Shown one piece after another: positions 7,237-61,763 of a stretch of DNA of 64,000 bases. A program made the position numbers and the translations under genes. How positions within the stretch are numbered: the stretch's first letter is position 1; each line of letters opens with the position of its first letter. The notes under the pieces are model-generated. The model had not been told where the DNA came from and did not search any database. It saw nothing but the letters and a program-made list of their open reading frames with translations. This DNA comes from Azolla caroliniana (taxonomy: Eukaryota > Plantae > Polypodiophyta). Where the stretch lies: positions 7,626,001 to 7,690,000 of the forward strand of contig JBHGNT010000002.1 of the NCBI GenBank assembly GCA_043228905.1, read 5' to 3'.

Positions 7237-10200
7237 TGTAAATGGCATTTGCAAGGTTCAATTACCATCAACACAATTATTAATAGTTTTTTGTTAATCA
7301 ATGATGCACATGTTTACCATAAAGTATCTTATTGTACAACATACTTGTTTGCACTATCGATATGCATCTTTTTCTCTTGTAAAAACAAAGATTTTAGTAC
7401 GATTCAAGTTCATGTTTAAAAAACCTCTTTTATCTGAAAAACAACAAGATTTTAAACATTAAGTCGATATGTTATATCGAGTTGATGTAAAAAATAGAGT
7501 TTTCATCATAATTCCATACAATGTATTGAATTATTGCTCAAAGTTTTTTTTACTAGATTTTAAAAAAAATAATAATAATAAATTGTGCTTGAGTTCATCT
7601 AGAAAACCATAATTTTCATCACAATTCGATATAATGTATTGAGTTCATGCTTAAAATAATTTTTTCTAATTGTTTTCAATTTTGTTTCAATTTTTTTCAA
7701 TTTTTTATAGTTTTCTATTGATTTTGTTTTATTTTTTAAACATCAATTTGATACATTGTATCGACTTGTGATAAAAGCTTTGGTTTTTTGATCACTTATT
7801 CAAGCTCAATTTTGTTTTAGAAAAAAAAACAAAGTACCAAAATAAAATAGAAAAAAATGTAATTATTTTTTTAAAAAAATCTAAAATTAAACTTTTCATG
7901 TCATGATATGGTAGGACTCGAAACCATGACCTTATGTTACATGGGTCAAGCTCTTGACAATTAAACCATACATTGTAATACATAAAATATTATTTTTATC
8001 ACTTCTTAAAGCTCAATTTTTTTTTAGAAAAAAAACAAAACACCATAATAAAATAGGAAAAAATGTAATTATTTTTAAAAAAACATCCGAAATAAAACTT
8101 TAAACATGAACTCGATACATCGTGTCAGGTTCATGTAAAAAAGTTAGCTTTTCAACATGAACTCGATACGCCGTATCGGGTTCATGTAAAAAAGTTAGTA
8201 TCGAGTTCTTGTAAAAGAGGTAACTTTTTTATATGTCATGATATGGTAGGACTTGAACCCATGACCTTCTGCTACATGGGTGGAGCTCTTGACCATTAGA
8301 CCATGCATTGTAATACATAAATTATTATTATTATCACTTATTAAAGCTTTATTTTATTTTAGGAAAAAAACAAAACACCATAATAAAATAGGAAAAAATG
8401 TAATTATTTAAATAAAAAAATCTGAGTATCGAGTTCATGTAAAAAAGTTAGCTTTTCAACATTATCGAGTTCATGTAAAAAAGTTAGCTTTTCAACATGA
8501 ACTCGATACGGCGTATCGAGTTCATGTTTAAAAGGGGTATCGAGTTCATGTAAAAGAGTTAGCTTAGTTCATGACATGATATAGTAGGACTTGAACCCAT
8601 GACCTTCTGCTACATAGGTGAGGCTCTTAACCATTAGACCATACATTGTAATACATAAACTATTATTTTTATCACTTATTAGAGCTTAATTTGTTTTTAG
8701 AAAACAAACAAAACACCATAATAAAATAGGAAAAAATGTAATTATTTTAAAAAAAAAATCCGAAATAAAACTTTAAACATGAATTCGATACGCCGTATCG
8801 AGTTCATGTAAAAAAGTTAGCTTTTCAACATGATATAGTAGGACTCAAACCCATGACCTTCTGCTACATAGGTGAGGCTCTTAACCATTAGACCATACAT
8901 TATAATACACAAACTATTATTTTTATCACTTATTAGAGCTTAATTTGTTTTTAGAAAACAAACAAAACACCATAATAAAATAGGAAAAAATGTAATTATT
9001 TTTTAAAAAAAATCCGAAATAAAACTTTAAACATGAATTCGATACGCCGTATCGAGTTCATGTAAAAAAGTTAGCTTTTCAACATGAACACGATACGGCG
9101 TATCGAGTTCATGTTTAAAAGGGGTATCGAGTTCATGTAAAAGAGTTAGCTTAGTTCATGACATGATATAGTAGGACTCGAACCCATGACCTTCTGCTAC
9201 ATAGGTGAGGCTCTTAACCATTAGACCATACATTGTAATACATAAACTATTATTTTTATCACTTATTAGAGCTCAATTTGTTTTTAGAAAACAAACAAAA
9301 CACCATAATAAAATAGGAAAAAATGTAATTATTTTTAAAAAAAATCCGAAATAAAACTTTAAACATGAATTCGATACGCCGTATCGAGTTCATGTAAAAA
9401 AGTTAGCTTTTCAACATGAACTCGATACGGCGTATCGAGTTCATGTTGAAAAGGGGTATCGAGTTCATGTAAAAATTTTAGCTTAGTTGATGATATGATA
9501 TGCTAGGACATAAACCCTTGACCTTGTGCTGCATGGGTGGAGCTCTTAACCATTAGACCATACATTGTAATACATAAAATATTATTTTCATCACTTATTA
9601 AATCTAAAAGTTTTTTAGAAAAAAAACAAAATACCAAAATAAAATAGGAAAAATGTAATTATTAAAAAAAATAAATCAGAAATAAAACTTTAAACATGAA
9701 CTCGATACGCCGTATCGAGTTCATGTAAAAAAGTTAGACTTTAAACATGAACTCGATACGCCGTATCGAGTTCATGTAAAAAAGTTAACTTAGTTCATGT
9801 CGTGATATGTAGGACTTGAACCCATGACATTATGTTACATGGGTCAAGCTCTTGACCATTAGACGATACATTGTAATACATAAAATATTATTTTCCTCAC
9901 TTATTAAAGCTCAAAGCCTTTTAGAGAAAAAAACAAAATACCAAAATAAAATAGGAAAAAATGTAATTATTTAAAAAAATAAATCGGAAATAACACTTTC
10001 AACATGAACTCGATACGTCGTAGATTAACTCATGTCATCATCATTCCCTCTCAGTCCCTCTCTCTCTCTCACTCTCTCTCTCTCTTCTTTTCTCAAGTGT
10101 TCTACACCTTAAATTCTTCTTAGTACTAATATTTCTCTCTTAGTACTAATTTCGTCTCTGTCTTAGAATTTTGTTTTTGAGCTTTAATAAGTGATGAAAA

Positions 10201-12700: not shown

Positions 12701-13114
12701 TGTTAGGAATAGTATTGAGAGAGAGAAGAAATTAGTACTAAGAGAGGAATATTAGTACTAAGAGGAATAGAGGGTATAGAACACTCGAGAAGGAGAGTGA
12801 TAGATCAAGGGAGAGAAAATGATGATGACAGTGATATATTATGTGAGAAGAATATATAAGGAAGGTTAGGAGGCTTAAGACGGCGTTGAACTGATTTGGT
12901 TCGAAATAATGCCTTGTGCCTCCTTTTATAGTGTTCTCAGGAGTAGTCTTGAAGCTTCTAGAATGTTCCAGAGAAATCTGCAATACACGTTAATTTTCTA
13001 TAGTAAAACTTAAATAAAAATAATATCCTATATATTACAATAGATAGTCTAATGATCAAGAGCTCGACCCATGTAACATAAGGTCATGGGTTTGATTCTT
13101 GTCATATCATGACA
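12701..13114 (-). repeat. 5' LTR of G0
   Basis: TGTCA...TAACA on the minus strand, similar to 38680-39097, followed by the non-tRNA PBS GTTTGAACCGATTT. Confidence 0.85.
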
Positions 13115-25323: not shown

Positions 25324-25732
25324 TGTCAGAACCAAGGATAAAAGATAGAGTGATGGAAGAAGGATAGAGAAGAATGGATGTATAAGATAGAGAAAGAAAG
25401 AGAATGGATACAAGATATGTAATGAGAGCTAAAGACTGGTGTTGATTCGAATTGATTTGAGAATACATGTATGCGCTTATTTATAGGTTCCTATAGAATA
25501 GCTTAGAGATTTCTAGAATGTTTTAGAATGTTCTAGACCTAGAATGCTCTAGGACATTCTAGAACATTCTAGAATAATCTAGAGTTTTTACAATAATCAA
25601 TGTAATACAAGAAGTAGCTTTTATTGTTTGATATAACAATAAGCTATCTTAATGGTTGAGATTTTCAAGTATGAATTACAAGGTTCGAGGTTCAAGTCCG
25701 GGTGACGCCATAATGGTCATGTGTTCATGGCA
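25324..25732 (-). repeat. 3' LTR of G2
   Basis: Direct repeat of 30629-31037. Confidence 0.95.
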
Positions 25733-27150
25733 CTATCTCTCCTTCGAGAACGCTGAGTGGAAGTCGGCATTAACATTGTTGGGCCGGGCTTGTTTGGATA
25801 GTGACGATGGAAGTCGTTGACCAGAGCTTCAGCATTACAAACGTTATCGATGGGTTCCCAAGTGTGATCACTCGGAGGATTACCAAGCCAATCAACTAGA
25901 TAATAAAGCTTATTGCGCACAATCTTAGAATCGAGAATAGCAGCTACCTCGTATTCGGGGCCATCCACAAGTTGTACAGAAGGCGGTGGTGGCACGACAC
26001 GATCAGGAATTAAAGAGGTGTGGCAAGGTTCCAAAAGAGAGCTATGAAAGACAGGGTGAAGCCGCATATGTGCAAGAAGGTTAAGACGAAATGTTGCATC
26101 ATTAATCTGCGCCGTGATGACAAAAGGACCTAAGTGTTGATAGTCAAGCTTAGCACATGGTCGGGTAGTCTTGATGTGACGACGAAGCAACCATACACGG
26201 TCACCAACCTTAAACGGAGACTTAAGACGATGTCGATCGGCATTGCTCTTATGGTGTGCTTGCGCTTTCTGACGATGTGACGATAACTCGAACTGGATTT
26301 GTTGTAGTCGGTGGAGGTGATGCGCCGCACTAGGGTTTCGTGACACCTCGGGAAGATCCAGTATACACCATCGAGGGTGGTTGCCGGTGTAGGCAAAGAA
26401 AGGTGTAACTTTGGTAGAAGAGTGGACCATGTTGTTGTATGCAAATTCAGCAAGATGTAAAATTTTACTCCAATCATCTTGTTGATAACTAATGAAACAT
26501 CGAAGATATTGCTCGAGCGTTTGATTTGTGCGCTCTGTTTGTCCGTCAATTTGTGGATGATAAACTGAAGAGAGTTTGCAAGAGATTTTGAGGCCTACCC
26601 ATAGGTGCTTCCAAAAGTGTGAGATAAATTGAGGACCTCGATCGCTAATAATATCATTCGGGAGACCATGATGGCGAAACACTTCACGCATAATGAGATC
26701 TGCAGTTTCTTCACTATTGATGGTCTTTACACATGGTACAAAATGTGCCATCTTGGTGAACCGATCCACTACTGTTAAAATAGTATCAAAGCCTTTGGAA
26801 GGTGGCAGATCCGTAATGAAATCCATAGAAATAGATTGCCATGGCTTGTTGGGAGGGGGTAATGGTTGTAGTAAGCCATAAGGGTGATGCCGGGGTATTT
26901 TGGCACGACAGCAGGTGTCACAAGTGCGAACATAATCTTCGACAAATTTTTGCAAGTGAGGCCACCAAAACGAACGTTTCACCAGCTCAATGGTCTTGGA
27001 AATACCAAAATGTCCAGCCATGGGGGCATCATGACAATGTTCCAACACTTGAAGTCGGGGTGATCCGTCGGGGACGCAAAGGAGATTCTTGTAGAAGAGT
27101 AAACCATCTTGCCACTTGAAGTCCTGATAATGTTGAGATGACCCTGGCAA
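25717..27150 (-). CDS. G2 pol: integrase and C-terminal chromodomain
   Basis: HHCC zinc finger, SMDFITDLP, SDRGPQF, DGQTER, GPF motif, YEVAAILDSK...YLVDW...TWEP. The stop lies inside the 3' LTR. Confidence 0.92.
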   Translation of the reverse strand: MPGSSQHYQDFKWQDGLLFYKNLLCVPDGSPRLQVLEHCHDAPMAGHFGISKTIELVKRSFWWPHLQKFVEDYVRTCDTCCRAKIPRHHPYGLLQPLPPPNKPWQSISMDFITDLPPSKGFDTILTVVDRFTKMAHFVPCVKTINSEETADLIMREVFRHHGLPNDIISDRGPQFISHFWKHLWVGLKISCKLSSVYHPQIDGQTERTNQTLEQYLRCFISYQQDDWSKILHLAEFAYNNMVHSSTKVTPFFAYTGNHPRWCILDLPEVSRNPSAAHHLHRLQQIQFELSSHRQKAQAHHKSNADRHRLKSPFKVGDRVWLLRRHIKTTRPCAKLDYQHLGPFVITAQINDATFRLNLLAHMRLHPVFHSSLLEPCHTSLIPDRVVPPPPSVQLVDGPEYEVAAILDSKIVRNKLYYLVDWLGNPPSDHTWEPIDNVCNAEALVNDFHRHYPNKPGPTMLMPTSTQRSRRRDSAMNT

Positions 27151-27507
27151 TGTGGAGCAAGATGGACGACTTGAACCACAATGGGCTAAGACATCCTTAG
27201 CAAAATCATCCGAATGAAGTTGTTGCCGAATAGTGTCAAGAAGGGTAGAATCAAGTGGTGTGGCATAAATTGTTGTTACCTGTAGCTTTGATGGCCCGAG
27301 GAGAGTTTGCTTTTGATTGTCAAAGGCCGGATCTCCAGGTCGAAGTGCTAGATACGAACGCCGAGACAGAGCATCTGCTTTCCCTTGTTGTTTTCCAGGG
27401 CGAAAAATGATCTTGAAATCGAAACGCGTTAGAAATTGGGCCCACCGAGCTTGTCGTCTATTTAATACTCGAGCTGTTTGAAAATATGTGAGATTTTTGT
27501 GATCACT

Positions 27508-29346
27508 TTAAATGATAATCTGATGAGGTGATCCTTCTAGAAAATGACGCCATTGCTCGAATGAGTCAACCACAGCTAGTAACTCCTTGTCATGCACCTC
27601 ATAGTTTATCTCCGAAACAGTAAACTTTCTCGAGTGAAACGCGACTGGATGTATCTGCCCGTCCTCGCCTGGTTGCGATAGGATACTCCCCAATGCAAAG
27701 TCTGATGCATCCGCCTCAATAGTAAATGGCTTTTCAGGATCAATATGTGCTAGGATGGGTGCTGATGTGAATGCCTCTTTTAGCTGCGTAAAATCCTTGT
27801 CCGCTTCGATACTCCAAAAAAATGCTTGATTTTTCTTGGTGAGTTGAGTAAGGGGCAACACAATGCTTGAATAATTATGTATGAATTTGCGATAGAAGTT
27901 CGCAAATTCGAGGAAACACTGGACATCCCGAACTGAGCATGGGGGTTTCCATTCCAATATTGTTTGAACTTTTGCCGGGTCCATGAAAACACCCTGGGAT
28001 GAAATAGTGTATCCCAAAAATTCGACTTGTTTGCAATCAAAACTGCATTTCTCAAGTTTGACGTAAAGACCATACTTCCTTAGGCGTTCAAGTACTTGCC
28101 GCACATGTATATCATGCTCCCCCTGTGTTTTAGAGTAAATCAATAGATCATCTAGGTAGATGATTAGAAAAATATCCAAGAAATCCCGGAAGATGTCATT
28201 TGCCATATGTTGGAATACGGCAGGTGCATTTGTGAGCCCGAAAGGCATGACTGTATACTTGAAATGACCATACTGAGTACGAAATGTTGTTTTCCACTCA
28301 TCTCCCGGCCGAATTCGAACAAGATTATATGCACCCCTTAGATCAATTTTGGTAAAATGCTTTGCCCCACCAATGCGTTCTAAGAGATTGGAGATTAAAG
28401 GTAAAGCATACCTATTCCTTATGGTGACTTTATTTAAGCCTCGATAGTCCACGACCAAACGAAGGGAGCCGTCCTTTTTCTTCACAAAAAAGATAGGAGC
28501 ACCAGCTGGAGACTTTGAATGTCGAATAAACCCATGTGCAAGATTTTCCTCGATGTATTCTCGAAGAACCTCAAGCTCAGTGGGTGATAAATTGTAAATC
28601 GGACCCCACGGAGGCTCTTTTCCTGGTTGGAGATCAATAGGACAGTCGTACGGCCGATGCTTTGGAAGAACACTAGCTTTGACTTTGTCGAAAACATTAG
28701 CATAGTCTTGATATTTTTTGGGAATTTGGATGTCTGAATTCCCTTGAGTGACACTAGAAGGTGTCATTGATACTGCAAATAAGAAAAGGTCCTCCTTGCC
28801 TCCCATTTGGTGCAATTGTTGCAATGTGATGGCTGAAATTTGATGAGAAGGATATGGTGCATCGGTAGAACTATATACTTTGGGAGGATAATCCCGAGTT
28901 CGATCCTTGACAATGATATTTTCTGCTAAAGAGCACCTAATTTCTCGCTTCCTCCAATCGATTCTAGGGTTATGTAGCTCGAACCATGGCAAACCGAGGA
29001 CAATTGGATGCTCAGGACTACGGATTATGTTAAAGGAAACTACACATCCTAAATCACCCAAGAGTATGTGTATTGGCTCAGACTCTTCAAATATCTTCCC
29101 GGAAGCTATGGGGCGTCCATCAATCACTAGTACGGAAACTGGACAAGGAAGTGTATGCAAGGATATTTGGTGTTTTTGGGCAAAATCTCTATCCATGAAA
29201 CAAGAATTGGCTCCAGTATCTAAGAGGGCTTGGACTTGAAGTTGACAACTGGGTGTCCTAACTTGTACTAGGGCTGAGAAGACTCTACTAACATGCTTGG
29301 AAGAAATGGAACCCACACTAGGTTGTACATATCTAGGGTTGTCCAA
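27508..29346 (-). CDS. G2 pol: protease, RT and RNase H; ends at a premature stop
   Basis: LLDTGA, KIDLRGAY, YLDD, EADASDFALG, YEVHDKELLA. Confidence 0.9.
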   Translation of the reverse strand: MDNPRYVQPSVGSISSKHVSRVFSALVQVRTPSCQLQVQALLDTGANSCFMDRDFAQKHQISLHTLPCPVSVLVIDGRPIASGKIFEESEPIHILLGDLGCVVSFNIIRSPEHPIVLGLPWFELHNPRIDWRKREIRCSLAENIIVKDRTRDYPPKVYSSTDAPYPSHQISAITLQQLHQMGGKEDLFLFAVSMTPSSVTQGNSDIQIPKKYQDYANVFDKVKASVLPKHRPYDCPIDLQPGKEPPWGPIYNLSPTELEVLREYIEENLAHGFIRHSKSPAGAPIFFVKKKDGSLRLVVDYRGLNKVTIRNRYALPLISNLLERIGGAKHFTKIDLRGAYNLVRIRPGDEWKTTFRTQYGHFKYTVMPFGLTNAPAVFQHMANDIFRDFLDIFLIIYLDDLLIYSKTQGEHDIHVRQVLERLRKYGLYVKLEKCSFDCKQVEFLGYTISSQGVFMDPAKVQTILEWKPPCSVRDVQCFLEFANFYRKFIHNYSSIVLPLTQLTKKNQAFFWSIEADKDFTQLKEAFTSAPILAHIDPEKPFTIEADASDFALGSILSQPGEDGQIHPVAFHSRKFTVSEINYEVHDKELLAVVDSFEQWRHFLEGSPHQIII

Positions 29347-29372
29347 CCAAATGGCTCCTATTTTGGCCGGAC

Positions 29373-30536
29373 TTATTCGTTTGACTCCTCTTCTAATTGG
29401 CTTAGGACTTCAAATTTATTGGACAAGGGTGGTTTATTCATAATATTAGATTCACTAACTACTTCTAAAATGTTGGACTCATTTTTATTGTCATAGTGAA
29501 TTTGATTTACCTGACGTCTCGGCCTACGGGAGCAATGAATGGCTATATGTCCTGGACCTCCACAATATAAGCACAGATGGTTTTCTCGATGACGTTGCTT
29601 CTCTTCGTCTGACAACGGTCCTCGTCGTTGAGTCATATCGATCTCCATGGGTGTAGGACTATCCATTGGGACTGGACTACGTGTTTGCCTTGGAGTTGGA
29701 GCAGGGCTATACATTTGCCTTGGGGATGATTGCGCCGTTACTGATGCATAAGTTGGTGTGAATCTAGATCTTGTTATTTGTTGTTGTCGCTCTCATCGAC
29801 GCTCAAAAAGGCGATTATCACACCGTATTGCTCGACTAATAGCTTCTGTAAGTGACCTTGGATCCTCGGGGAAGGTAAGAAGTAAGTCTTTGACATCACT
29901 ACGAAGGCCTGAACGGAATTGCTCCATTAGGGCTTGTTCATCCCAAGGAATATTGCTTGCGATGAGACGAAAATTGGCAGCATATGTTGAAGCTGGTTGA
30001 TCACCTTGACGAAGTGTACGAATCTTGTTGATAGCTGTTCTCGCCCCATCAGTATCTCCGAAACAAGCCTTAAATTCCTTGATAAATTCCTCGAAATTAT
30101 TCAGTAGAGGAGAATTGGTTTCTAGCAATGGAGCAAACCACGACAACGCTATGCCAGTCAATAAAGTGCCCACTAGCCCGACTCGTGATGCGTCTGTTGG
30201 ATAACGTGCGGGATGCATTTGAATCACCAACCGTACTTGATTCAAAAAACCTCGGAAATGCGCCCTCGACCCATCAAATTTAGATGGGAGGCTAATTTTG
30301 GGCTCCTTGATAAGTCCCTGACCTTCAACCCTTTGTTGTTGTAACACGACGATTGTCGACTCTAACTGTTGCACTCGTCGCGTGAACTCCTCTTGTTGTT
30401 GTTGCTTCTCTATAGTAACCTTTTGTAGATCCCCAAGTAGACGTTGATTCTCTACTTCAAGAGATGCGAACTTGGATTTAAGGTTCTCCATTTCTGCAAC
30501 AAGGGTGAGATATTCTTCTGAGTTAATGGCAGCCAT
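29373..30536 (-). pseudogene. G2 gag with an internal stop near 29793
   Basis: MAAINSEEY coiled coil, PSKFDGSR, CLYCGGPGH zinc knuckle. Confidence 0.88.
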
Positions 30537-30561
30537 GGTTTTAGGATGGTTACAAAGGAGG

Positions 30562-30563
<2 letters not shown>

Positions 30564-30614
<51 letters not shown>
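30564..30614. repeat. (GA)n microsatellite in the G2 5' UTR
   Basis: Seen directly. Confidence 0.9.
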
Positions 30615-30619
<5 letters not shown>

Positions 30620-30628
30620 GAATCAAAC

Positions 30629-31037
30629 TGTCAGAACCAAGGATAAAAGATAGAGTGATGGAAGAAGGATAGAGAAGAATGGATGTATAAGATAGAGAAA
30701 GAAAGAGAATGGATACAAGATATGTAATGAGAGCTAAAGACTGGTGTTGATTCGAATTGATTTGAGAATACATGTATGCGCTTATTTATAGGTTCCTATA
30801 GAATAGCTTAGAGATTTCTAGAATGTTCTAGAATGTTCTAGACCTAGAATGCTCTAGGACATTCTAGAACATTCTAGAATAATCTAGAGTTTTTACAATA
30901 ATCAATGTAATACAAGAAGTAGCTTTTATTGTTTGATATAACAATAAGCTATCTTAATGGTTGAGGTTTTCAAGTATGAATTACAAGGTTCAAGGTTCAA
31001 GTCCGGGTGATGCCATAATGGTCATGTGTTCATGACA
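30629..31037 (-). repeat. 5' LTR of G2
   Basis: Direct repeat of 25324-25732; TGTCA...TGACA termini. Confidence 0.95.
30783..30879 (-). promoter_or_regulatory. G2 LTR promoter: heat-shock element arrays and TATA box
   Basis: TTCtaGAAtgTTCtaGAAtgTTC at 30816-30838, TTCtaGAAcaTTCtaGAA at 30862-30879, and TATAAATA on the minus strand at 30783-30790. Confidence 0.75.
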
Positions 31038-38679: not shown

Positions 38680-39097
38680 TGTCATAATATGGCAAGACTC
38701 GAACCCATGACCTTATGCTACATGGGTCGAGCTCTTGACCATTAGACTATACATTGTAATACGTAGAATATTATTTTCTTTTATGTTTTATTATAGAAAA
38801 TTGATGTATATTCTAGATTTCTCTGGAACATTCTAGAAACTTCAGGAGTATTCCTTAGAACACTATAAAAGGAGGGACAAGGCATTATTTCGAACCAAAT
38901 CGGTTCAACGCCAGTCTTAAGCCTCCTAGCTACTGTACATTTTCTTCACATAATATATATCTTTTCTTATCATCACTCTCTCTCTCTCTCTCTCTCGATC
39001 TCTCTCTCCCTCCCTCTCACTCACTCTTTCCTTCTCTCGAGAGTTCTTCACCTCTCATAGTACTAATTCCTTCTCTGTCTTAGTACCGTTCCTGACA
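38680..39097 (+). repeat. 5' LTR of G1
   Basis: TGTCA...TGACA; repeat of 45365-45792. Confidence 0.94.
38826..38870 (+). promoter_or_regulatory. G1 LTR promoter: HSE and TATA box
   Basis: GAAcaTTCtaGAAacTTC at 38826-38843; TATAAAA at 38864-38870. Confidence 0.7.
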
Positions 39098-39118
39098 GTT
39101 TGAACCGATTTTCCCTAC

Positions 39119-39866
39119 TGATAGGGTGTATAAGATAATAGATAGTTATACACTATATGAGGGCTTGACCAAACCGATTAGATGGAGTTGAAAATCATAA
39201 TATATTATATAGCTCTAGGTAATTATGATTAAAGAGTATAACTCAAGAAACTAAGAAAAAAGATAGAGAAAACGAGCAAGAAATAAGAATGTTCTGATAT
39301 TCCAACATCAAGAGAATACAAAGGAGACAAACTCCACATTGAACTAAAACCAAAGACCTTCCTCTTCTAAGACACTTTCTCTTCCACAAAGACACTTCTT
39401 CCTAACACTCCTCATCCACTCTTTGGCCTTCCCTCTTAGCCCCCTTCTCACTAATATCACTTCTTCTTTTATAACCTTCCTCTTCTTATCCACGGTCATG
39501 CTATTTTTAGAAGCTTTTTATCTCCCTATTTTTAGCTATGACACATCGACCTTCTAATCGTCATATCTCCCTCATCCGATATCCAAATTAAGCGATTTAA
39601 AAAGCTATAGAAAGCTCTTTTTACAAGCTTTCTAATCCATATTTAAACGTGATATTTGGATAAACAACGAGGGAGTTATGACCATTCTATTTTTACTGTT
39701 TTTTATAGTCTGCGTTTTCTCTTTTTACTTTTCTCTTGGTCTCGTACTTTTACTTTTGACTTCTTCCCTAAGGTCTTAGTTCGTGTTCTTATCCTCAAAA
39801 GGTGAATTATCTATACTTTATATTCTCCCAATGTTCAATGGCTTAGATTCTAAAAACACTTTCACA
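39119..39866. mobile_element. Solo LTR, 748 bp, inserted in the G1 5' UTR
   Basis: TG...CA ends; TSD CCTAC at 39114-39118 and 39867-39871; no coding sequence. Confidence 0.8.
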
Positions 39867-39924
39867 CCTACCTTCTGTCTCTCTCATTTCCTACTAATCT
39901 CTTATTCCTCTTTTCTTTCATCCC

Positions 39925-42900
39925 ATGGCCACTGTTAGCGCTGAAGAATATCAATCTGTTTTCTCGGAATTTCAATGCTTGAAAGAGAAGTTCCATGCTT
40001 TGGAACAAGAAAACCAACGGTTGCTGAGGGATCTTCAACAAATCTCCTTAGAAAAGCAACAAACACAACAACAACATGGGGAACTTGCGTTACGCGTGCA
40101 ACAACTCGAAGCAACCATCGTAGCGATGCAACAACAAGGGCCCGGAACACAAGGGATTCATAAAGAACCCAAGATTGGCCTTCCTATGAAGTTCGATGGA
40201 ACGCGATCGCAGTTTAGAGGGTTCCTTAACCAGGTACGATTAGTTATTTAAATGCATCCTTCCCGATATCCCACCGATGCATCACGAGTGGGTTTAGTAG
40301 GCACTTTGTTAAGTGGCTCAGCGTTGGCATGGTTCGCTCCGCTATTAGAAAAGGAATCTCCGTTACTCAACAATTTTGAAGAGTTTCTAGGTGAGTTTAA
40401 AGCATGTTTCGGAGATACTGACAGCATCAGGACCGCAATCAACAAAATTCGGCGATTACGCCAAGGTGACCGTCCAGCCTCCGCATACGCTGTAGATTTT
40501 TGCCTACTCGCCGCCGATATCCCTTGGGATGATTAAGCGTTGATGGAGCAATTCCGTTATGGTTTACACAACGACGTCAAGGATTTACTCTTGACCTTCC
40601 CCGAAGAGCCAAAGTCCTTAACAGAAGCAATCAGTCGTGCGGTGAGATGTGACAACCGCCTCTTTGAGCGACGTTCGGAACGACAGCTACAGATGCCGAG
40701 GGTTAGATCAAAGCCCACCTACGCCTCAATGGTAGCAAGACCTATTTCGAGGGAGTCAGATAATGCGCCTCCAGCGAATACTCCGACTCCGATGGAGATT
40801 GACACTACACGTCGTCGAGGGCCATTATCCGAGGAAGAAAAGTAGCGACGCCGTACAAATCGACTATGTCTTTACTGCGGTGGACCAGGACATATTGCAA
40901 TAAATTGCCCCCATAGGCCAAGAAGACAGGTAAACCAAATAGTCGCTAGTTCTAATTGTACTAAACCTGAGCCTATTTCAGTAGGGATATCTGATAGTCC
41001 TAATAGTACTAATAGCCCAGATCTAGCGAACAGATTTGATGTCCTTAGTCAGTTAGAAGAAGAGTTAAACGACTAAGTCCAGCCAAAATAGGAGCCGTTT
41101 GGTTGGATAGCCCTAGATCTGTGCAACCCATTATTGGTTCCATTCCCTCTAAGAAAGTTAGTGATGTGTTCGTAGCCCAAGTGATAGTTAGTACTAAAAG
41201 TACCCCTCCAGTACATGTCCTAGCACTCCTAGATTCTGGAGCTAACTCTTGCTTTATGGATAAGAAATTTGCTCAAGCTCATAAGATATCCCTAAGAAAA
41301 CTCCAGTGTCCAGCCTCTGTAGTAGTCATTGATGGACGTCCCATTGCTTCCGGAAATATCATAGAAGAGTCAGAGCCCATTAATATTGTCCTAGATAACT
41401 TAGCATGTGTAGTATCATTTAATATTATTAGTATCCCAGAACATCCCATAGTTTTAGGATTGCCGTGGTTCAAGTTACATAACCCATACATAGATTGGAG
41501 AACAAGAGAAATCCGGTGTCGACAAACCCAAGGGTCAACTCAGAAGATGGCAACCATTTCGCTACATCAGTTGCGTAAAGAAGGGCGCAAGGAGGAAATG
41601 TAAACCCCTCCAGTACCACTAAAGAAGAATCCACCGTTCAACTTCCCGAGAAGTATCGTCATTACGCCGATGTGTTCGATAAAGTACAAGCCAACACACT
41701 TCCTCATCATTGACCGTACGATTGCCCCATCGATTTACAACCGGAAAAAGAGCCGCCATGGGGACCGATCTACAATTTGTCACCAACCGAGCTGGAAGTC
41801 CTTCGGGCATATATAGAAGAGAATTTGGAAAATGGTTTCATTCGGCATTCAAAATCTCCAGCCGGCGCGCACATTTTCTTCATCAAGAAAAAGGATGGAT
41901 CCCTTCGTCTCGTTGTAGATTACCGTGGCCTGAATAAGGTTACAATCAGGAATAGGTAATGCTCTTCCCCTTATCTCAAGTCTTTTTGAACGGATCAATG
42001 GTGCCAGGTTCTTCACGAAGATCGACTTATGGGCAGCATATAACCTCGTACGGATCCGACCAGGAGACGAATGGAAGACCGCGTTTCGTACCAGATATGG
42101 GCACTTCGAGAATACGGTCATGCCGTTCGGCCTCACTAATGCACCGACAGTCCTCCAGGACATGGCTAATGATATATTCCAAGATCTATTGGATGATTGT
42201 TTGATCATCTATTTGGATGAATTACTGGTTTATTCAAAGACCTAAGAAGAACATGATTCTCATGTACTATTAGTACTAAAACGACTTCGAGAACATGGTC
42301 TGTATGCAAAGCTGGAAAAATGTAGTTTCGGGTGCAACCAAGTGGAATTTCTTGACTACATCATTTCGTCAGAAGGCATCTCCATGGACCCAGCTAAGGT
42401 CAAAACAGTGGTAGAATGGCAGACTCCGCGTTCGGTGCGGGATGTGCAATGCTTCCTAGGCTTTGCCAATTTTTACCGGAAGTTCATACAAGATTACTCA
42501 AAGGTCGTTCTACCTCTCACACAACTTACCAGGAAGGGACAACCGTTCATCTAGTCTGAAGAAACGGACATGGCTTTCGAGAGTCTTAAAAGGGCATTTA
42601 CATCGGCTCCAATTCTAGCTCATGTCGATATGGAAAAACCATTCATTATCGAAGCTGACGCATCGGATTTTGCATTGGGGAGCATTTTGTCACAACAAGG
42701 GAATGATGAGAAGCTACATCCTATGGCTTTTCACTCACGCAAGTTTGACGCCGCCGAAATCAACTACGAAATTCATGATAAGGAGCTATTGGCAATAGTG
42801 GATTCTTTTATGCAATGGAGGCATTTTCTGGAGGGATCCTCTCATCCGGTCACCGTATTTAGTAACCACAAGAACCTTGCCTACTTTCAAGATGCTCGTG

Positions 42901-45372
42901 TGTTGAATCGACGTCAAGCTCGGTGGGCCCACTTCCTCATGCGTTTCGACTTCAAAATTACATATCGTCCGGGGAAGCACCAAGGGAAGGCATATGCATT
43001 ATCACGACGTTGGTATCTAGCACCCCATCCCGGCGAGGCAGCTTTCGATAACCAAAAACAAGTCATCTTGGGACCGGCACGACTACACGCAACACATATC
43101 TTTGACATGCCCATGGATTCCCGCGTTATCGATACCATACGCGAAGACTTGAAGACAGATGCGTTCGCCCAAGCTATACTAGCACAAATTGATCCCTCTT
43201 GAGCGTCGTGTTCATAGTCGCAACCACCAGGTACGGACTATCAACAATTTAAATACCATGATGGATTACTCTTCTTTAAAGAACGTTTGTACGTTCCTAA
43301 TGGTTCTTGCCGCCTTCAAGTAGTACAAAACTGTCATGACACATATACAACTGGGCATTTTGGTAGTACTAAAACGTTACATTTAGTACAACGATCATTC
43401 TGGTAGCCCTGTATGCGACAATTTGTCGAGGATTTTGTTCGAACGTGTAATACATGCTGCAAAGCGAAAATGCCAAGGCATCATCCATATGGTTTATTAC
43501 AACCATTACCAATTCCAAGCAAGCCGTGGCAATCCATTGCTCTAGACTTCATCACAGATCTTCCCGTTGTCGTGCCTTTCGGCTCCGGATCGTTGCGTGA
43601 GTCGGGTGGGAACCACTGGGGTTTTGGACTAGGAAGAGGAGAGTTTTAAGGCTAATAAGAATATAAATATGTTGTAAGAAAGAGTTATAGCAAACTCGTG
43701 AATCCCACGAGTGTATTGTATTAGATTAATCAATATGAATATAAGAATATAAACTTCGGTTGAAAGAGAATGATATAGAATTCTCGTGAATCCCACGAGT
43801 ATAGTTTATTAATTGGTGTTTTTTAGAAACATATCCAGTTTCCAAGTATTTCACACACAATTACATTGTGCTCCCCATCCTTATGTAGTGATGAGGAAGT
43901 CTTAGTAATCCATGCTTTTTCTCTAACTATAGACCCCATGCTTTTCCTATAGATAGACTATATGCTTTATCTAAAGTGATCATGCTTTTTTCTAACTTGT
44001 GCGTTTTTTATCATGCACGCTAGATGTGTATGTGTAGCTTTTTCTTTTGTTATGCGTTTTTCTAATGTTTATCCTAGCGTGAATTTACCTTTCTATGTGG
44101 GACATCTATGCTTTAACACTAATGAAATGCTAGTGTAATGGTAAGACATTACATTATTAACATGGAGGTGCAAGGTTTGAATCTTGCCCTATGCATGTTC
44201 CATTTATTTTGCTATTTTCTTCTATTTCTTCATTTTTTATTGAATCTAATACTATATACGTTTTTCACGTAGTGTACAAAATACACTACGACACCGTCTC
44301 TAAGGGGTTCAATGCGATTCTAACGGTGTTCGATCGATATACAAAGATGGCTCATTTCTTGCCATGTACTAAGGAGATCTCCAATGAAGACATTGCCGAA
44401 ATTGTCATGTGTGAAGTATGTCGGCATCATGGACTTCCCGATAGTATCATCAACGACCGTGGACCCCAGTTCGTGTCAAAATTCTGGAAGCACCTTTTTA
44501 ACATGCTCAAGGTCACTTGTAACCTCTCCTCCGGCTACCACCCACAAACCGATGGCCAAGCCGAACGAACCAATCAAACGTTGGAGCAGTATCTACGGTG
44601 CTTTCTCAGCTATCATTAGGATGACTGGGCAGATATTCTCCACTTCACTGAATTTGCCTATAACAACTCTATCCACGCATCCACTAAAGTTACGCCATTT
44701 TATGCTTATACGGGAAGTCACCCCCGGTGGTGTGTACTTGAAACCCTAGAGGTGTCCACAAATCCTTGCGCAGAGGATCGTTTGGAGAGGTTACGCAAGA
44801 TACAAGCGGATTTATCTACTCATCTCCAACAAGCTCAAGAAACACACAAGGTTTATGTGGATCGTCATCGACTCCCATCTAGTTTTAACATTGGAGATCG
44901 GGTATGGCTACTCCGACGACACATCAAGACTACTCGCCCATGCGAGAAGTTGGATTATCGGCGATTACGTCCCTTCCGTATTATAGGAAAGATTAATGAT
45001 GTCGCTTTTCGTCTTGATCTACCTCCACAACTTCGGATACATCCGGTGTTTCATAGTTCTCTCCTTGAACCTTATCAAGAGAGTACCATCCCAGGACGTA
45101 TTACACAACCTCCACCCTCGATCGAGCTTGAAGATGGACTTGAGTACGAGGTTGCCGCCATCCTTGATTCCAAGCTTGTTCACAACAAGCTCTACTATCT
45201 AGTCGATTGGGTAGGATATAGTCCCATCGAGCGTACTTGGGAACCGATAGAGAATGTCACCAATGCTCGTGCTCTTTTTGAAGACTTCCATCGTCAATAT
45301 CCAAACAAACCGGGTCCTCAATCCAAAACGACTTGTTGCACTGGTCGTTTTAAAAGGGGGATAGTGTCATGA
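39925..45372 (+). pseudogene. G1 gag-pol, disrupted
   Basis: Fragments are collinear with G2, with many stops and frameshifts and an insertion at 43568-44293. Confidence 0.92.
43568..44293. mobile_element. Solo LTR G3, 726 bp, inserted in the G1 integrase
   Basis: TGTCGT...ACGACA termini; 4-bp TSD CCGT; removing it restores DLPVSKG. Confidence 0.88.
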
Positions 45373-45792
45373 TATGGCAAGACTCGAACCCATGACCTTA
45401 TGCTACATGGGTCGAGCTCTTGACCATTAAACTATACATTGTAATACGTAAAATATTATTTTCTTTTATATTTTATTATAGAAAATTGATGTATATTCCA
45501 GATTTCTCTAGAACATTCTAGAAACTTCAGGAGTATTCCTTAGAACACTATAAAAGGAGGGACAAGGCATTATTTCGAACCAAATCGGTTCAATGCCAGT
45601 CTTAAGCCTCCTAGCTACTGTACATTTTCTTCACATAATATATATCTTTTCTTATCATCACTCTCTCTCTCTCTCTCTCTCCCTCCCTCCCTCTCTCTCA
45701 CTCTTTCCTTCTCTCGAGAGTTCTTCACCTCTCGTAGTACTAATACTTCTTTTAGTACTAATTCCTTCTCTGTCTTAGTAATGTTCCTGATA
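45365..45792 (+). repeat. 3' LTR of G1
   Basis: Follows the PPT; terminal CA is mutated to TA; followed by the TSD. Confidence 0.93.
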
Positions 45793-49260: not shown

Positions 49261-52200
49261 AGCTAGAAGAAGACTACGACCAAGAAGCAGCAGATTACCT
49301 CAGCAACTTGATTGGAGAGAGGGGATTTTTACTGCCAAACTAATAGAAAAGGACACATCACATGGGAAAGTTAAAGGCCAAGAAACGGGCACAAAACTGA
49401 GTGTTATTCTGCATGACATTGAGCCATTTTAATCTGTCTTATTCTGTATGAGATTGAGCCAGTTTCTGTAGGAGATTGAAGAAAAGCAGATGGGATGCCA
49501 AAGAGAAACTAGTTGAGTATGTGATGAATACCCAATTGTTTTCAAGGGAAAGAAGGAGGTGGCAGTATTATGGGCTTTCATTATGGGTTTTGTTGGCTGT
49601 TTGATTTGTTCTATGGCTGCCTCATCGAGACGTCTCCAAAACATCGTACATTTTCAGCATATGATCCCATGGAATATAAATCAATGGTAGTGGCAAAGAA
49701 GTTAAATGGCAGAGAATGGTTTTGGTTGGACAATGTCCCACATGTTCAAGCAAAGGTGAATGGAAAAGAGGTGAGAGAATGGTTCGTGCTAAAGTGGAGG
49801 CCTTCTCAAGGTTTATATGTGGTCTTATAGCTCGACGTAGCAATGGAAGTTTCTCAAGGTTTATATGTGCTCTGCTAGCAAAGGTGTTATTGGCAACAAT
49901 GTAGTTTTTTTGATAATATGTATTTGTGCAGAGGAAACAGTATTATGTACTATTTGTATATTGCCTTTGGCTTTTTATTAATACTAATGGAGCATATTTT
50001 TATGGAAAAAAAAAAAACTTGTCAATGGTTCTCATCCTCTGACCACAATACCTTGATCTGGATACTAAAGGAGTAAGTATCCGACCCCGTGTTACTAAGG
50101 AGCAATAACAAAATTGACCGCCCACCGTTGAGTGACGAAATTGTTGATCCAGATTAAAAGGCTCACACATGGGGATGGGGAATGCCGCAATGCATATGGT
50201 CTCATTCGTTCGTTGTCCTATCATTAGTTGGTTGTTGAGAACATCAGTGAACCAGCAAGAAAAAATTCAACTGAACCCCCCAATCGCTCAAGACTTCAAT
50301 CAACAAATAGATTATCTTTTCATCGGAAATTCAGAAAGTGTTGACATCCACATGAGGCGATGTGATGGGCTAGCAAGGGATGTTTACATTTTGAACTATG
50401 AGAAACCATCCCTCACTCATCATGGGGAGTAGGGGACCTTGGGGTTTTGTGGAACTCTTGTTCAACCCTCTAAGGAAGAGGCTAGTGACCTTTTGCTAGC
50501 CTCCCCAAGCAAGCAAAGAAGAAAGTTAATATGAACCCATTTGTTCGACATGAAAATACGATATCTTAACCACTAGAAAAAAGGGACTTGGCTTTGAAAA
50601 CTTGATGAAGATGTCCTTGAATCCAACTAGATGTTTATGGGAAGAGGTTAAAGCACTATGATTTGTAGTAAATCCTCTCAATCCTATGACCTTTGGGTTA
50701 AGCATTTCCTACTATCTATAGGATGCATAGTCTCCACAATTCTACATACAAAATTTTTGGGCTTCAAAATGCCTAGATGACTCAAAAGTTCATATGTTCA
50801 GAGAAGTTTTAGGCAATAAGGTAAATAGGTAGGCTACAATTCTTGTTCAATCTGTGGACAGAGATATGCCACAAGAAGCCATAAGAAGCATAGCCAAAGA
50901 CGTGAAAAAGGACGGAGTGAAAGGTTACCCGCCCAATACACGAAAATAATCGAGGTGACAGGATTCAAACATATGGCCCTCTGTACCCAAAACAGATGCA
51001 CTACCAGACAACGCTACACCTCAGGGTTGGTTGGTTGCTTACTATGTGGGCCATCCCTAGTAGTAATGGTTGACAGTGTAACAGTTAAAGTGCGGAAGCT
51101 TGTACACAACAGACACAAGTGGCTTAGCCCAATAACAGTTCACAGTTAGGTATACACAAAATGAGGGTGAGAGAGAGAGAGATTGAGTTAGCAGAAAACA
51201 AAAAACTCTATTACAAAACTCTCAGTACAATCAATAAGCTCACAAAGCACTTTACATACAAGCCCCTAACAGTGGCCTAACACAAGTACTGACAAAGTAA
51301 TTAATGCTCTTCATGAGCTTTGACACCTAATTAAACATACCATTCGTAATACTATGTTAGGCCTCATGGCCCTATATACTAATGGCCTTGTTAGCCTATC
51401 GGCTTCCTCAGCCGATCCTTCAAGCCGATTTAGCTTCATGTTGATCTCACTTGTTACTCAAGAAGGAACCAACAAAAGTTATTTATTAGAGCCTAAGCCG
51501 CTTGGTTGGCACCTAATCTCTCATCAGTAAATCTCGGGAAGGGAAAAGGTCCAAGAAAGAAAGTCTTATGTCCTCGCATCAAGCAAGCAAGTTGCATCAA
51601 CCAAGCAGGAACCCTGTCGCATAGATCTTGATCCTCTATGGATATGGCGGTGTTTAGCGAGTGTACCTCCACGTTCTCCTTCTAATCTGACCTCCGAGAT
51701 TGACCGGTGATGAGGAGGGGAGGTGGGAGCTTTAGGCACCATAGCTATGGATGCCATTGGCTTTAGGTTTGATTTGCACTAGCACATACCCACACACATA
51801 GGCGTACACGCAACATAGACATAGAGACGCAATAGATAGATAGATTATATTATCGTCTTCGGAGGTCAAATATGACCTATGAGACAAAAAATCTTACATT
51901 TCACATGATACTTGTGAAAGTGAGTAGCGACTCTCGATTGTCAAGAACTTTACCAATGAATGTTGCGATCGAGAGTGCACATCGTGGTTGTGAGAGAAAT
52001 TCGTGCAAGGATTGGGCTTGGTCGAAGAGATGTGGAAAGCATAGTCAAATATGATCAAAGGCAGAGCATTGTATCAAAGTGTGATACTCAGACTCTCGAA
52101 CTTGTTTGGCAAAGTGTGCATAGCTGGCCACTCTCATCAGTTGTGCCCCAACGCCCCGTCTCACATCGCAATGCATGCGAGCTAAGTCGCATGGAAGCAA

Positions 52201-56168: not shown

Positions 56169-56922
56169 TGTTGGGAGACAGGTCCCTCCGGATGGGAAGG
56201 GAGAAGAACATAACCGGATGATACAGACCCGGTATGAACCGGATGAGGAGTACCCGGCTACGAAGAGCCGGATGATGCAGGCCCGGTATGAACCGGATGA
56301 GGAGTACCCGGCTACGGAGAGCCGGATGGTGCAGGCCTGGTATGAACTAGATGAGGAGTACTCGGCTACGGAGAGCCGGATGGTGCAGGCCCGGTATGAA
56401 CCGGATGAGGAGTACCCGGCTACGGAGAGCCGGATGATACAGGCCCGGTATGAACCGGATGAGGAGACATATTCGTAAATATGTTTCTGAGAGCCTATCG
56501 AGGCTACATTTGTAAATAGCCGAAAAGTCATATTAGTATAAATATGACTTAGGGCAAACTTTTAGTAATAGTTGTTGTCATTTTTCCTTGTTGGTGCAAG
56601 AAGAAGAGAGAGTGCGTAACTGTACAGAGAGAGAGAGAGAGAGAGACGAGGTCGTTGCTTCTGTTGTAACCGCCGCCTGTGGCGAAGATCTGTGAGCACG
56701 AGGTTGTTGCCTCAGTGAACTCACTGTTGTATATTCCTACATAGTGACAATTTGCAGCCTGTGGGCTGCCGTGGTTTTTTCCCCTAGTTTGGGGTTTTCC
56801 ACGTAAACCTCCTGTGTATTCTCTCCCTCTTTGTGTCGCGTTTTATTTCCCGTTTTTCTGTGTATCATTCTAAGCTCGGTTGTGGCCGAGTGTTGCGCAT
56901 AAGGAACGTTGCGTTCCCGTCA
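56169..56922 (+). repeat. 5' LTR of copia C, with a 57-bp tandem repeat at about 56213-56466
   Basis: Repeat of 61014-61763; about 4.5 copies of CCGGATG..CAGGCCCGGTATGAACCGGATGAGGAGTACCCGGCTACGGAGAG. Confidence 0.95.
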
Positions 56923-56972
56923 AGTGGTATCAGAGCGAAATCGACACAGAAAATAGACGAATCATTTGGCGG

Positions 56973-59900: not shown

Positions 59901-61003
59901 ACTGAAGCAGGCTCCCCGGCAATGGTACCGGAAGTTCGACTCCTTCATGACCGATCAAGGGTACCACAAGACGTAGGCCGACCACTGCGTGTTTTTGAAG
60001 AAGTTTGAAAGAGGCGACTTCCTGATACTCCTTCTATACGTGGACGACATGTTGATCGTCGGACGGGACCAAGTCAAAATACGGATGCTGAAGAAGGCTC
60101 TCAACCGGACCTTCTCAATGAAAGACTTGGGTCTGGCAAGACATATGTTGGGGATGCACACCATCCGGAACCGGTCAGCGAAGCAATTATGGCTGTCACA
60201 GGAGAAGTATATGACAAAGGTGCTTCACCGGTTCAACATGTCAGATGCGAAACCGGTTGGATCGACACTTCCGGCAAACTGCAAGCTATCCGGTAAGCAA
60301 AGCCCGAAGACGAAAGCAGAGAAGGCGGATATGATGAAGATCCCATACGCCTCTGCCGTCGGGAGCTTGATGTACGCAATGGTTTGTACCCGACCGGACA
60401 TTGGATACGCAGTCGGAGTGGTGAGCCGGTTTATGAGCAATCCCGGCAAGGAGCACTGGAACGCGGTCAAGTGGATACTCCGGTACTTGAAGGGCACTTC
60501 AAATATGTGTCTCCGATTCGGCTCCGGAAAACCTCAACTGGACGGTTTCACCGATGCGGACATGTCGACTGATGTGGATACCAGCCGGTCTACATCCGGG
60601 CATGTGATGACATATGCGGGGGGGAGTTATTTCGTGACAGAAGACGGTTGCATTGTCAACCACAGAGACGGAGTACATGGCGGCTGTGGAAGCCGGCAAG
60701 GAAATATTATGGATGAAGGACTTCATCGGAGAGCTCGGTATCCGGCAAGAGGAATACCGACTCTACTGCGACAGTCAAAGTGCCATCCACCTTGCTAAGA
60801 ATGCGGCCTACCATTCTCGGACGAAGCATATCCAGTGAAGATATCACTGGATCCGGGAAAGAGTAGATGACCAGGAGTTCTCACTGACGAAGATCCACAC
60901 GGCAGAGAACGGATCAGATATGCTGACCAAAGTGCTGACACCTGACAAGCTGGACGCATGCCAGAAGAGAATCGGACTGGTAAGACACCCCATGCCGGAG
61001 TGA
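56973..61003 (+). pseudogene. Copia C gag-pol with premature stops and an RNase H deletion
   Basis: CFYCGKPGH, WVVDSGASFH, FIDDHSR, QLDVKTAFL, LYVDDML. Stops at 57595, 58498, 59974 and 60836; frameshift near 60630. Confidence 0.93.
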
Positions 61004-61013
61004 AGGGGGAGTT

Positions 61014-61763
61014 TGTTGGGAGACAGGTCCCTCCGGATGGGAAGGGAGAAGAACAGAACCGGATGATACAGACCCGGTATGAACCGGATGAAGAGTACCC
61101 GGCTACGGAGAGTCGGATGATGCAGGCCCGGTATGAACCGGATGAGGAGTACCCGGCTACGGAGAGCCGGATGGTGCAGGCCCGGTATGAACCGGATGAG
61201 GAGTACTCGGCTACGGAGAGCCGGATGGTGCAGGCCCGGTATGAACCGGATGAGGAGTACCCGGCTACGGAGAGCCGGATGATACAGGCCCGGTATGAAC
61301 CGGATGAGGAGACATATTCGTAAATATGTTTCTGAGAGCCTATCGAGGCTACATTTGTAAATAGCCGAAAAGTCATATTAGTATAAATATGACTTAGGGC
61401 AAACTTTTAGTAATAGTTGTTGTCATTTTTCCTTGTTGGTGCAAGAAGAAGAGAGAGTGCTTAACTGTACAGAGAGAGAGAGAGAGACGAGGTTGTTGCC
61501 TCTGTTGTAACCGCCGCCTGTGGCGAAGATCTATGAGCACGAGGTTGTTGCCTCAGTGAACTCACTGTTGTATATTCCTACATAGTGACAGTTTGCAGCG
61601 TGTGGGCTACCGTGGTTTTTTCCCCTAGTTTGGGGTTTTCCACGTAAACCTCCTGTGTATTCTCTCCCTCTTTGTGTCACGTTTTATTTCCCGTTTTTCT
61701 GTGTATCATTCTAAGCTCGGTTGTGGCCGAGCGTTGCACATAAGGAACGTTGCGTTCCCGTCA
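61014..61763 (+). repeat. 3' LTR of copia C
   Basis: Follows the PPT; ends TCA followed by the TSD. Confidence 0.95.

Follow-up and report, generated by a model that had tools for sequence, protein, structure and literature searches.

Antisense tRNA-type Pol III promoter boxes at the outer LTR ends of Tcn1-like chromoviruses in Azolla caroliniana

The window analysed here, i.e. the whole 64,000-nucleotide stretch of Azolla caroliniana DNA, contains two coding LTR retrotransposons (G1 and G2), a relative of the former (G0) and a solo LTR (G3). In all of their LTR copies (6/6), a tRNA-type A box and a B box, 44-45 nt apart, lie in antisense orientation near the outer LTR end, and we refer to this arrangement as the module. 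The relevant features are listed below, with T8 belonging to the A box, scores given out of 15 and shuffles being the number of 200 dinucleotide shuffles that matched the antisense score.

38680-45792, plus strand: G1 element, TSD GTACT
38680..39097, plus strand: G1 5' LTR, TG...CA, with HSE-like nTTCnnGAAn array at about 38826-38843, TATA at 38864 and self-primer complement at 38897-38908
38696..38749, minus strand: module of the G1 5' LTR (A box 38739-38749, variable-loop AGGTC 38709-38713, B box 38696-38704; T8 at 38749); 15/15, 0/200 shuffles
38750..38809, minus strand: AT-rich tract upstream of the A box in the G1 5' LTR, 60 nt, 83% AT; predicted TFIIIB/TBP platform
39100..39111, plus strand: G1 self-priming site, 12 nt complementary to the R start; no tRNA PBS
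39898..45369, plus strand: G1 gag-pol, interrupted by stops, frameshifts and the G3 insertion, with SH3 and chromodomain at its end
45381..45434, minus strand: module of the G1 3' LTR (LTR 45365-45792; T8 at 45434), with a copy-specific T4 at 45352-45355; 15/15, 0/200 shuffles
25324-31037, minus strand: G2 element, TSD CAAGA, LTR pair 98.8% identical
25720..30638, minus strand: G2 gag and PR-RT-RH-IN-chromodomain frames
25645..25698, plus strand: module of the G2 3' LTR (LTR 25324-25732 on minus; T8 at 25645); 14/15, 0/200 shuffles
30950..31003, plus strand: module of the G2 5' LTR (LTR 30629-31037 on minus; T8 at 30950); 14/15, 0/200 shuffles
13045..13098, plus strand: module of the G0 5' LTR (LTR 12701-13114 on minus; T8 at 13045); 13/15, 1/200 shuffles
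44131..44183, plus strand: module of the G3 solo LTR (LTR 43568-44293, presumably on minus; T8 at 44131), 110 nt from the LTR tip; 14/15, 0/200 shuffles
7899..9895, minus strand: tandem array with seven copies of the outer 100-120 nt of a G1-type LTR, arranged head to tail, with T8 at 7968, 8303, 8641, 8895, 9228, 9560 and 9866

Both G1 and G2 encode gag and PR-RT-RH-IN-SH3-chromodomain, and the module-bearing coding elements here span 5.7-7.1 kb. Their integrases carry a group I chromodomain, with Pfam Chromo matches at E-values of 2e-12 and 4e-12, and its three aromatic positions read, by eye, Y/W/Y in G1, with N at the third position in the examined G2 copy. Neither G1 nor G2 has a tRNA PBS; an exact 12-nt self-priming complement is present in G1, in G2 and in two of the relatives described below (L002 and L004). 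In G0, a G1-family element (86% identical over 300 nt) with a Copia insertion between 5' LTR and gag, this site occurs as well, though with an exact match of only 6 nt. Judged by their sequence, G1 and G2 belong to the Tcn1-like chromoviruses, being self-priming and of autonomous type, whereby the likeness to SM-Tcn1 was assessed by eye and our tree is one without named Tcn1 references. Namely, they share with the Tcn1 chromoviruses of non-seed plants the Gag-PR-RT-RH-IN-chromodomain order, self-priming and LTRs of about 410-460 bp (PMC2864245, PMC6317226, PMC3350952), where self-priming of Tcn1 is a prediction (PMC6317226), and the R-start motif is, by eye, common to SM-Tcn1 and the coding elements studied here (PMC2864245). 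As a separate observation, the sequence following the 5' LTR of SM-Tcn1 appears by eye to be complementary to the R start, as in G2, though the original report states that there is no self-priming site (PMC2864245).

G3 is a 726-bp solo LTR within the G1 integrase, with a 4-bp TSD (CCGT) as opposed to 5 bp in G1 and G2. It is devoid of the R-start motif present in the other seven LTRs compared, carries an internal 71-nt duplication and matches none of the other LTRs or loci by blastn; its internal sequence is absent, and its minus orientation is read from the pyrimidine-rich 3' end. Because of the 4-bp TSD and the missing R-start motif, G3 can be placed in neither Gypsy nor Tcn1 with confidence. 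The preliminary description, which had spoken of Gypsy LTRs of three families, is right for G1/G0 and G2, but goes too far for G3. Were G3 not a Tcn1 element, the module would have moved between lineages.

Going inwards from the outer tip of the G1 LTR, one encounters the att end, the B box, AGGTC, the A box, 60 nt of AT-rich sequence, the HSE-like array, the TATA box and the R start, which places the Pol III-type module and the Pol II promoter back to back. The module lies within 16-49 nt of the cDNA end in 7/8 LTRs, and the Pol II TATA is found 115-184 nt further in than the AT-rich tract. The AT fraction of the tract upstream of the A box is 0.77-0.83 in 7/8 LTRs vs 0.60-0.69 LTR-wide, the exception being G3 with 0.63. 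In other words, the features of a type 2 Pol III promoter are present, namely A and B boxes at tRNA spacing and, in 7/8 LTRs (not G3), an AT-rich upstream tract such as is described for plant tRNA genes (PMC7544208). The HSE-like nTTCnnGAAn arrays are an observation in their own right: they occur in U3 of G0, G1, G2, L001 and L018 (window sites 38826-38843, 25500-25580 and 30815-30880) and are absent from G3, L003, L004, L005 and L006, and the Physcomitrium element RLG2 has been reported to be heat-induced (PMC7466625).

How special is this arrangement of boxes? The module was scored over the first 200 nt of each LTR against a consensus set a priori from the generally known patterns, i.e. TRGYNNARNGG for the A box and GTTCRANNC for the B box, with 15 informative positions and 43-47 nt between the boxes. 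These patterns are consistent with PMC10886601. The antisense scores of 13-15 contrast with only 9-11 on the sense strands of the same six LTRs, and the Copia LTRs remain at chance, scoring 9-10 and being equalled by 160-200 of 200 shuffles in five tests on four families. Over both strands of the entire window, 22 sites score at least 13, of which 13 are module copies and 9 are background, while every one of the five perfect-score sites is a module copy. The sequences, strands and spacings of the boxes described earlier for G0, G1, G2 and G3 are correct, with 45 nt between T8 and G53 in G0, G1 and G2 and 44 nt in G3, and the possibility raised at that time, that shuffled LTRs would yield similar matches just as often, does not materialize: at most one of 200 shuffles does as well.

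That earlier list of copies, although confirmed as far as it went, overlooked the seven at 7899-9895. These belong to a tandem array with units of 254-338 nt, in which the LTR-tip copies are followed by a piece of the LTR 3' part. All seven modules score 13-15, each has a T4-T6 run at +80 to +87 from T8, and the array is enclosed by inverted repeats at 7238-7350 and 10646-10758. The region 7238-10758 as a whole looks like a foldback-like element with long inverted repeats, to which the units add 51-nt palindromic subrepeats, and each unit, with its T-run, resembles a complete Pol III unit. Loose contig ends in read-derived runs look like a continuation of the array, hinting at further copies elsewhere.

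To what extent are the boxes kept relative to their surroundings? We compared seven families, leaving out L001, which is 80% identical to G2. Column agreement is 6.75 of 7 families in the fixed A-box positions, 6.5 in the B box and 6.0 in the variable loop (44-48), and falls to 3.9-4.0 in the 40 upstream columns and in positions 22-43, 49-52 and 62-69; the boxes are thus better kept than their flanks, a comparison proposed in the preliminary description. The difference between boxes and other columns corresponds to a Mann-Whitney P of 3e-7, a value to be read in light of the fact that columns are not independent. Moreover, since it was by their boxes that the modules were found, some of the contrast for the boxes follows from the procedure; this circularity does not affect the variable loop, the shuffles or the leave-one-out tests given below. 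The sequence between the boxes, earlier called unrelated, is indeed diverged over most of its length, but the variable-loop AGGT is conserved. At the level of single positions, R9, Y11 and R57 are kept in 7/7 families, G10 in 3/7 and C56 in 5/7. Over the first 110 nt, blastn finds no match between families except for the close pair G2/L001; interfamily matches sit further in, at the HSE-like arrays and R, and the integrase ends differ between families at up to about half of their residues. Within the G1 family, variants at a level of at least 4% in any of four runs hit 4/15 box positions, three of them within the degenerate code and one (G10) breaking the consensus. Set against the 12/39 other module positions that vary, this single break among 15 box positions gives a Fisher P of 0.06, where contig ends can hide variants, and the LTR likewise shows no variation over its first 16 nt.

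Relatives of the elements were sought by aligning integrase-end proteins against a metagenome collection, covering 5/64 of its parts; 79 loci were retrieved from the best 80 of 569 confirmed matches. The LTR start was located by a PPT-plus-TG rule, making 41/79 loci scorable, with a check by eye restricted to the nearest loci and some distant ones. In the eight loci of at least 52% identity, the scores are 14 for the near-identical L001 and L002, 13 for L003, 15 for L004, 13 for L005, 14 for L017 and 12 for L018, and in the six tested they are equalled by 0-1 of 200 shuffles each; in L006, with 10/15, the module is absent. L025 is too short to score, and L069 has no PPT. None of 33 more distant LTR starts reaches 13 and four of these reach 12, while the sense strands of all 41 scorable starts never exceed 11. 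A profile built from eight modules and run over 550,479 bases yields 21 matches at E<=2e-5, all of which are module copies (13 in the window and 8 in the loci, including L025), and nothing beyond these below E=0.14. If one family at a time is left out, the profile regains the omitted module in 7/8 tests at E<=0.007, L005 giving only E=1.2. Viral contigs contain no relative by single-protein query and four distant ones by alignment query, prokaryote genomes contain 17 distant loci related to the integrase end, probably contaminants, and in neither group does the module profile match any locus below E=5.

The module is confined to one clade of relatives plus one basal element. Namely, in a tree of 36 integrase ends (G1, G2 and 34 of 100 loci, i.e. 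the closest plus outgroups), a clade with support of 100/97 has the module in 8/8 rows; it is also present in L005, and absent from the outgroups. L005, with the module, and L006, without it, branch at the base of the clade in unresolved order, which fits a single gain, with or without one loss. By eye, the LTR of the Selaginella element SM-Tcn1 has no boxes (PMC2864245). As for abundance, thousands of contigs in the runs labelled as organisms A, B and C match the G1-type LTR, as do 831 contigs in D. The boxes, their spacing, orientation and position, the restriction to a clade, and the conservation as opposed to diverged spacer and flanks are all directly established; the motif is real and clade-wide, and probably kept under selection. 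The original proposal of a retained Pol III-type promoter module is in this sense backed by the contrast between boxes and flanks, by the shuffle test and by presence across a clade of relatives.

The module is not a functional tRNA gene and its cloverleaf is mostly lost. A tRNA search at relaxed cutoff, as suggested previously, comes out negative: ARAGORN and Rfam at E<=10 call no tRNA at the module, be it in the window or in eight loci. Watson-Crick pairing amounts to 12/49 in the acceptor stem, 14/28 in the D stem, 15/35 in the anticodon stem and 8/28 in the T stem. Pairing in the acceptor and T stems does not exceed that of permutations and the D stem is marginal (P=0.10), while the anticodon stem retains a trace (9.1 expected from permutations, P=0.0125 uncorrected for eight stem tests; slid controls 7-12). 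Pooling all stems gives P=0.007 for Watson-Crick pairs and 0.054 with G-U. There is no conserved anticodon and, by eye, no CAA at a common position. Strong hairpins are seen at the module in G1 and G3 (z of about -4 to -6) and are absent in 6/8 LTRs; the G1 hairpin was accordingly rejected as a cause of the conservation, as only 2/8 LTRs fold.

What about a defined transcript? Over 12 LTRs, the first T4 run occurs anywhere from +65 to +1080 nt from T8, lying at 110 nt or less in 6/12, with a T5 in 1/12, so that no oligo-T terminator is common to them. The TTTT at 45352-45355, formerly put forward as a terminator supplied by the complement of the PPT, does exist in the G1 copy, but is copy-specific, as about 90% of the depth reads G at position 45355 in all three high-depth runs (X1, X13 and X17). 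With T4 missing from most of the depth and first T4 positions scattered, we rejected a PPT-complement terminator as a family trait, and the RNA of 90-100 nt predicted from it is likewise unsupported as such. Among RNA runs, X15 gives four matching contigs (one spanning 38688-38809) and X16 three; such contigs carry no strand, start or level, and are neutral on the question of transcription.

Pol III promoters in LTRs are not without precedent. Helenus (TRIMp3), one family of which is found in Selaginella, has tRNA-derived A and B boxes in its LTRs, as described in an analysis restricted to TRIMs of less than 1000 bp (Kojima 2024, PMC10886601). The likeness is considerable: in both cases a tRNA-derived stretch resides in both LTRs and is kept around the boxes in the absence of a functional tRNA, for Helenus a SINE capture has been proposed, and in Helenus-1_SMo of Selaginella AGGTC precedes the B box, just as in the present module (PMC10886601). 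That said, Helenus comprises TRIMs without coding capacity, 311-1263 bp in length and equipped with a tRNA PBS, whereas here the hosts are coding, self-priming chromoviruses with a Pol II TATA; furthermore, the Helenus boxes are in sense orientation in the three complete LTRs compared, the text of the paper giving no orientation, and could drive element RNA, whereas here they are antisense and face outwards. Cassandra and Ajax also have a long-retained internal Pol III promoter in their LTRs, but one of the 5S type 1, in non-autonomous TRIMs and, for Cassandra, with a demonstrated RNA start, as opposed to the predicted tRNA type 2, antisense promoter of autonomous elements here (PMC10886601, PMC12786077). 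Given Helenus and Cassandra, the arrangement is less unprecedented than first thought. The preliminary description knew of no account of it, and this holds for the antisense form in autonomous elements, but not for LTR Pol III promoters as such (PMC10886601). In particular, we found no report of an antisense A/B-box module in the LTRs of autonomous Tcn1 elements in the largely open-access literature searched, the accessible parts of PMC13570524, PMC12786077, PMC11963269 and PMC5911963 included; similarly, the portions consulted of the papers on Tcn1 and Physcomitrium RLG1 mention no Pol III element (PMC2864245, PMC6317226, PMC3350952, PMC7466625). What appears to be new is the capture of a Pol III promoter by LTR elements in antisense, outward form and by autonomous hosts, with a presumed function.

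The reading that we place first, giving it an even chance, is that a tRNA- or SINE-derived promoter was captured and has been kept as a TFIIIC/TFIIIB site on DNA that would shield the Pol II promoter of the LTR. The boxes would have come from a tRNA gene or a tRNA-derived SINE and were likely captured once, by an ancestor of the Tcn1-like clade. TFIIIC would bind them and place TFIIIB on the AT-rich tract that lies inwards of the A box, which would maintain a boundary poor in nucleosomes that separates the LTR promoter from the flank. The element itself is expected to be steered into heterochromatin by its chromodomain. An outward Pol III transcript, if any, would be a by-product of variable length. 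Acceptor and T stems at the level of permutations, together with the lack of a shared terminator, fit a DNA signal better than a defined RNA. Moreover, an outward promoter cannot make the element genome and self-priming removes the need for a primer, which is why we rank a DNA-level site first. Parts of this scheme have parallels: TFIIIC and Pol III sites of yeast work as barriers and Pol II roadblocks (PMC4228148), the chromodomain of MAGGY, from group I, binds H3K9me and targets heterochromatin (PMC3350952), and chromodomain targeting has been suggested for RLG1 (PMC7466625). The module most likely works like the tDNA and ETC/COC boundaries of yeast, where boxes occupied by TFIIIC serve as barriers, insulators or roadblocks to Pol II, whether Pol III is present or not; the difference is that these are host loci, beside which Ty elements insert, whereas here the putative site is carried by the element itself (PMC4228148, PMC4370569).

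Several findings speak against such a shield. Heterochromatic, clustered tRNA genes of Arabidopsis are methylated and silent though their boxes are intact (PMC7544208), meaning that boxes need not make a barrier in plants. In the 3' LTR, Pol II would have to traverse the module, and a roadblock of the kind known from yeast (PMC4228148) would there be expected to cost full-length RNA. The incomplete retention of G10 and C56 across families also counts against it, and, with L006 and, by eye, SM-Tcn1 having no module, Tcn1 elements can evidently do without. Finally, a site consisting of a B box only needs neither an A box, nor the spacing, nor AGGT. All three are kept here, beyond what such a site demands, and this points towards transcription. 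Indeed, it is possible, although in our opinion unlikely, that the module works as a Pol III promoter and yields a meaningful antisense RNA, which would restrain the element, feed siRNA production or fold as a partial tRNA mimic; from the 3' LTR, such a transcript would cross the PPT into the integrase end. The joint retention of A box, B box, exact tRNA spacing, AT-rich tract and AGGT, the residual pairing in the anticodon stem, by an uncorrected P, and in the pooled stems, more so for Watson-Crick pairs than with G-U, and the T-runs in 7/7 array copies are all in line with this. Against it are the scatter of the first T4 runs and the absence of the G1 run from about nine-tenths of the depth, as well as the lack of conservation in anticodon, acceptor and T stem, of a common CAA (by eye) and of any Rfam tRNA match at E<=10. 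The shielding function and a meaningful antisense RNA can, in any case, both hold.

We assign a low probability to a role in the retrotransposon cycle, be it annealing of a host tRNA in strand transfer, TFIIIC on cDNA ends aiding nuclear entry or integration, or U3 hairpins affecting plus-strand priming. The proximity of the module to the cDNA end in 7/8 LTRs, the strong hairpins in G1 and G3, and the cooperation of several Ty3/Gypsy integrases with Pol III factors (PMC5911963) would agree with such a role. However, these elements self-prime and need no tRNA, the kept positions are those common to all tRNAs and are too few and too scattered for stable annealing, 6/8 LTRs have no hairpin, and the insertion sites of G1, G2 and G3 adjoin no tRNA gene, the sole one found in the window being at 50950. 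About equally improbable, we believe, is that the module is a neutral remnant, by now without function, of a SINE or tRNA that long ago inserted in an ancestral LTR. Kojima proposes that Helenus arose from just such insertions and states that many Repbase LTRs contain tRNA-like pieces (PMC10886601); the faint trace of a cloverleaf, the borderline within-family test and the equally invariant first 16 nt would also be expected of a relic. Decay, on the other hand, would not spare the box positions and the 44-45 nt spacing while spacer and flanks drop to about 4/7, in families that are so diverged that blastn finds nothing to match in the first 110 nt, bar G2/L001, and that differ at up to about half of the integrase-end residues.

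Taking the shield a step further, we can tentatively envisage, with less confidence than in the shield itself, a clade of autonomous, heterochromatin-seeking chromoviruses that carry an outward-facing tRNA-gene decoy at each LTR tip and use the Pol III machinery of the host as a portable chromatin barrier for their Pol II promoter. Thousands of LTRs would in this way seed TFIIIC sites in the genomes of non-seed plants, and the module may have spread to the lineage of G3 and to the terminator-bearing array. If true, the capture of Pol III promoters would reach beyond miniature parasites to autonomous elements, which would put it to another, outward-facing use; the genomes of non-seed plants could owe a large number of TFIIIC sites to these LTRs; and whereas Ty elements insert next to tRNA genes of the host, the situation here would be reversed. 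It is an open question how transcription persists in retrotransposons that target heterochromatin, and a clade-wide module of two boxes that can be mutated at single points makes one answer to it testable. Testability would be greatest if the module were also borne by RLG1 of Physcomitrium, which has 5092 complete copies and is expressed in protonema (PMC7466625).

The rest of the window deserves a few remarks. At 50950-51023 on the minus strand there is a tRNA-Pro(TGG) gene or pseudogene (37.9 bits) with an altered B box, where the module profile does not match and which we take to be organelle-like in appearance. At 17434-17478 on the plus strand, a B-box-like GGATTCAAGTC follows AGGTC in an intron or flank of a gene at about 17071-18627 (minus), whose exons resemble, by eye, an EF-hand Na+/Ca2+ exchanger; it is possibly a decayed module or SINE head, but with a profile E of 0.14 and no clear A box it was not counted as a module copy. 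A dirigent-family gene (PF03018 relatives) at 15513-16058 on the minus strand has metagenome relatives at 91-93%, the best named relatives, from ferns, being at 38-48%, a pattern that by itself suggests a non-seed land plant as host. Across positions 1-64000, insertions are nested throughout: a Copia element sits in the G0 leader and itself contains an AT-rich insertion that holds a foldback element, G2 lies within a second Copia, G3 lies within G1, and a Copia with 54-nt LTR repeats (56169-61763) lies within another.
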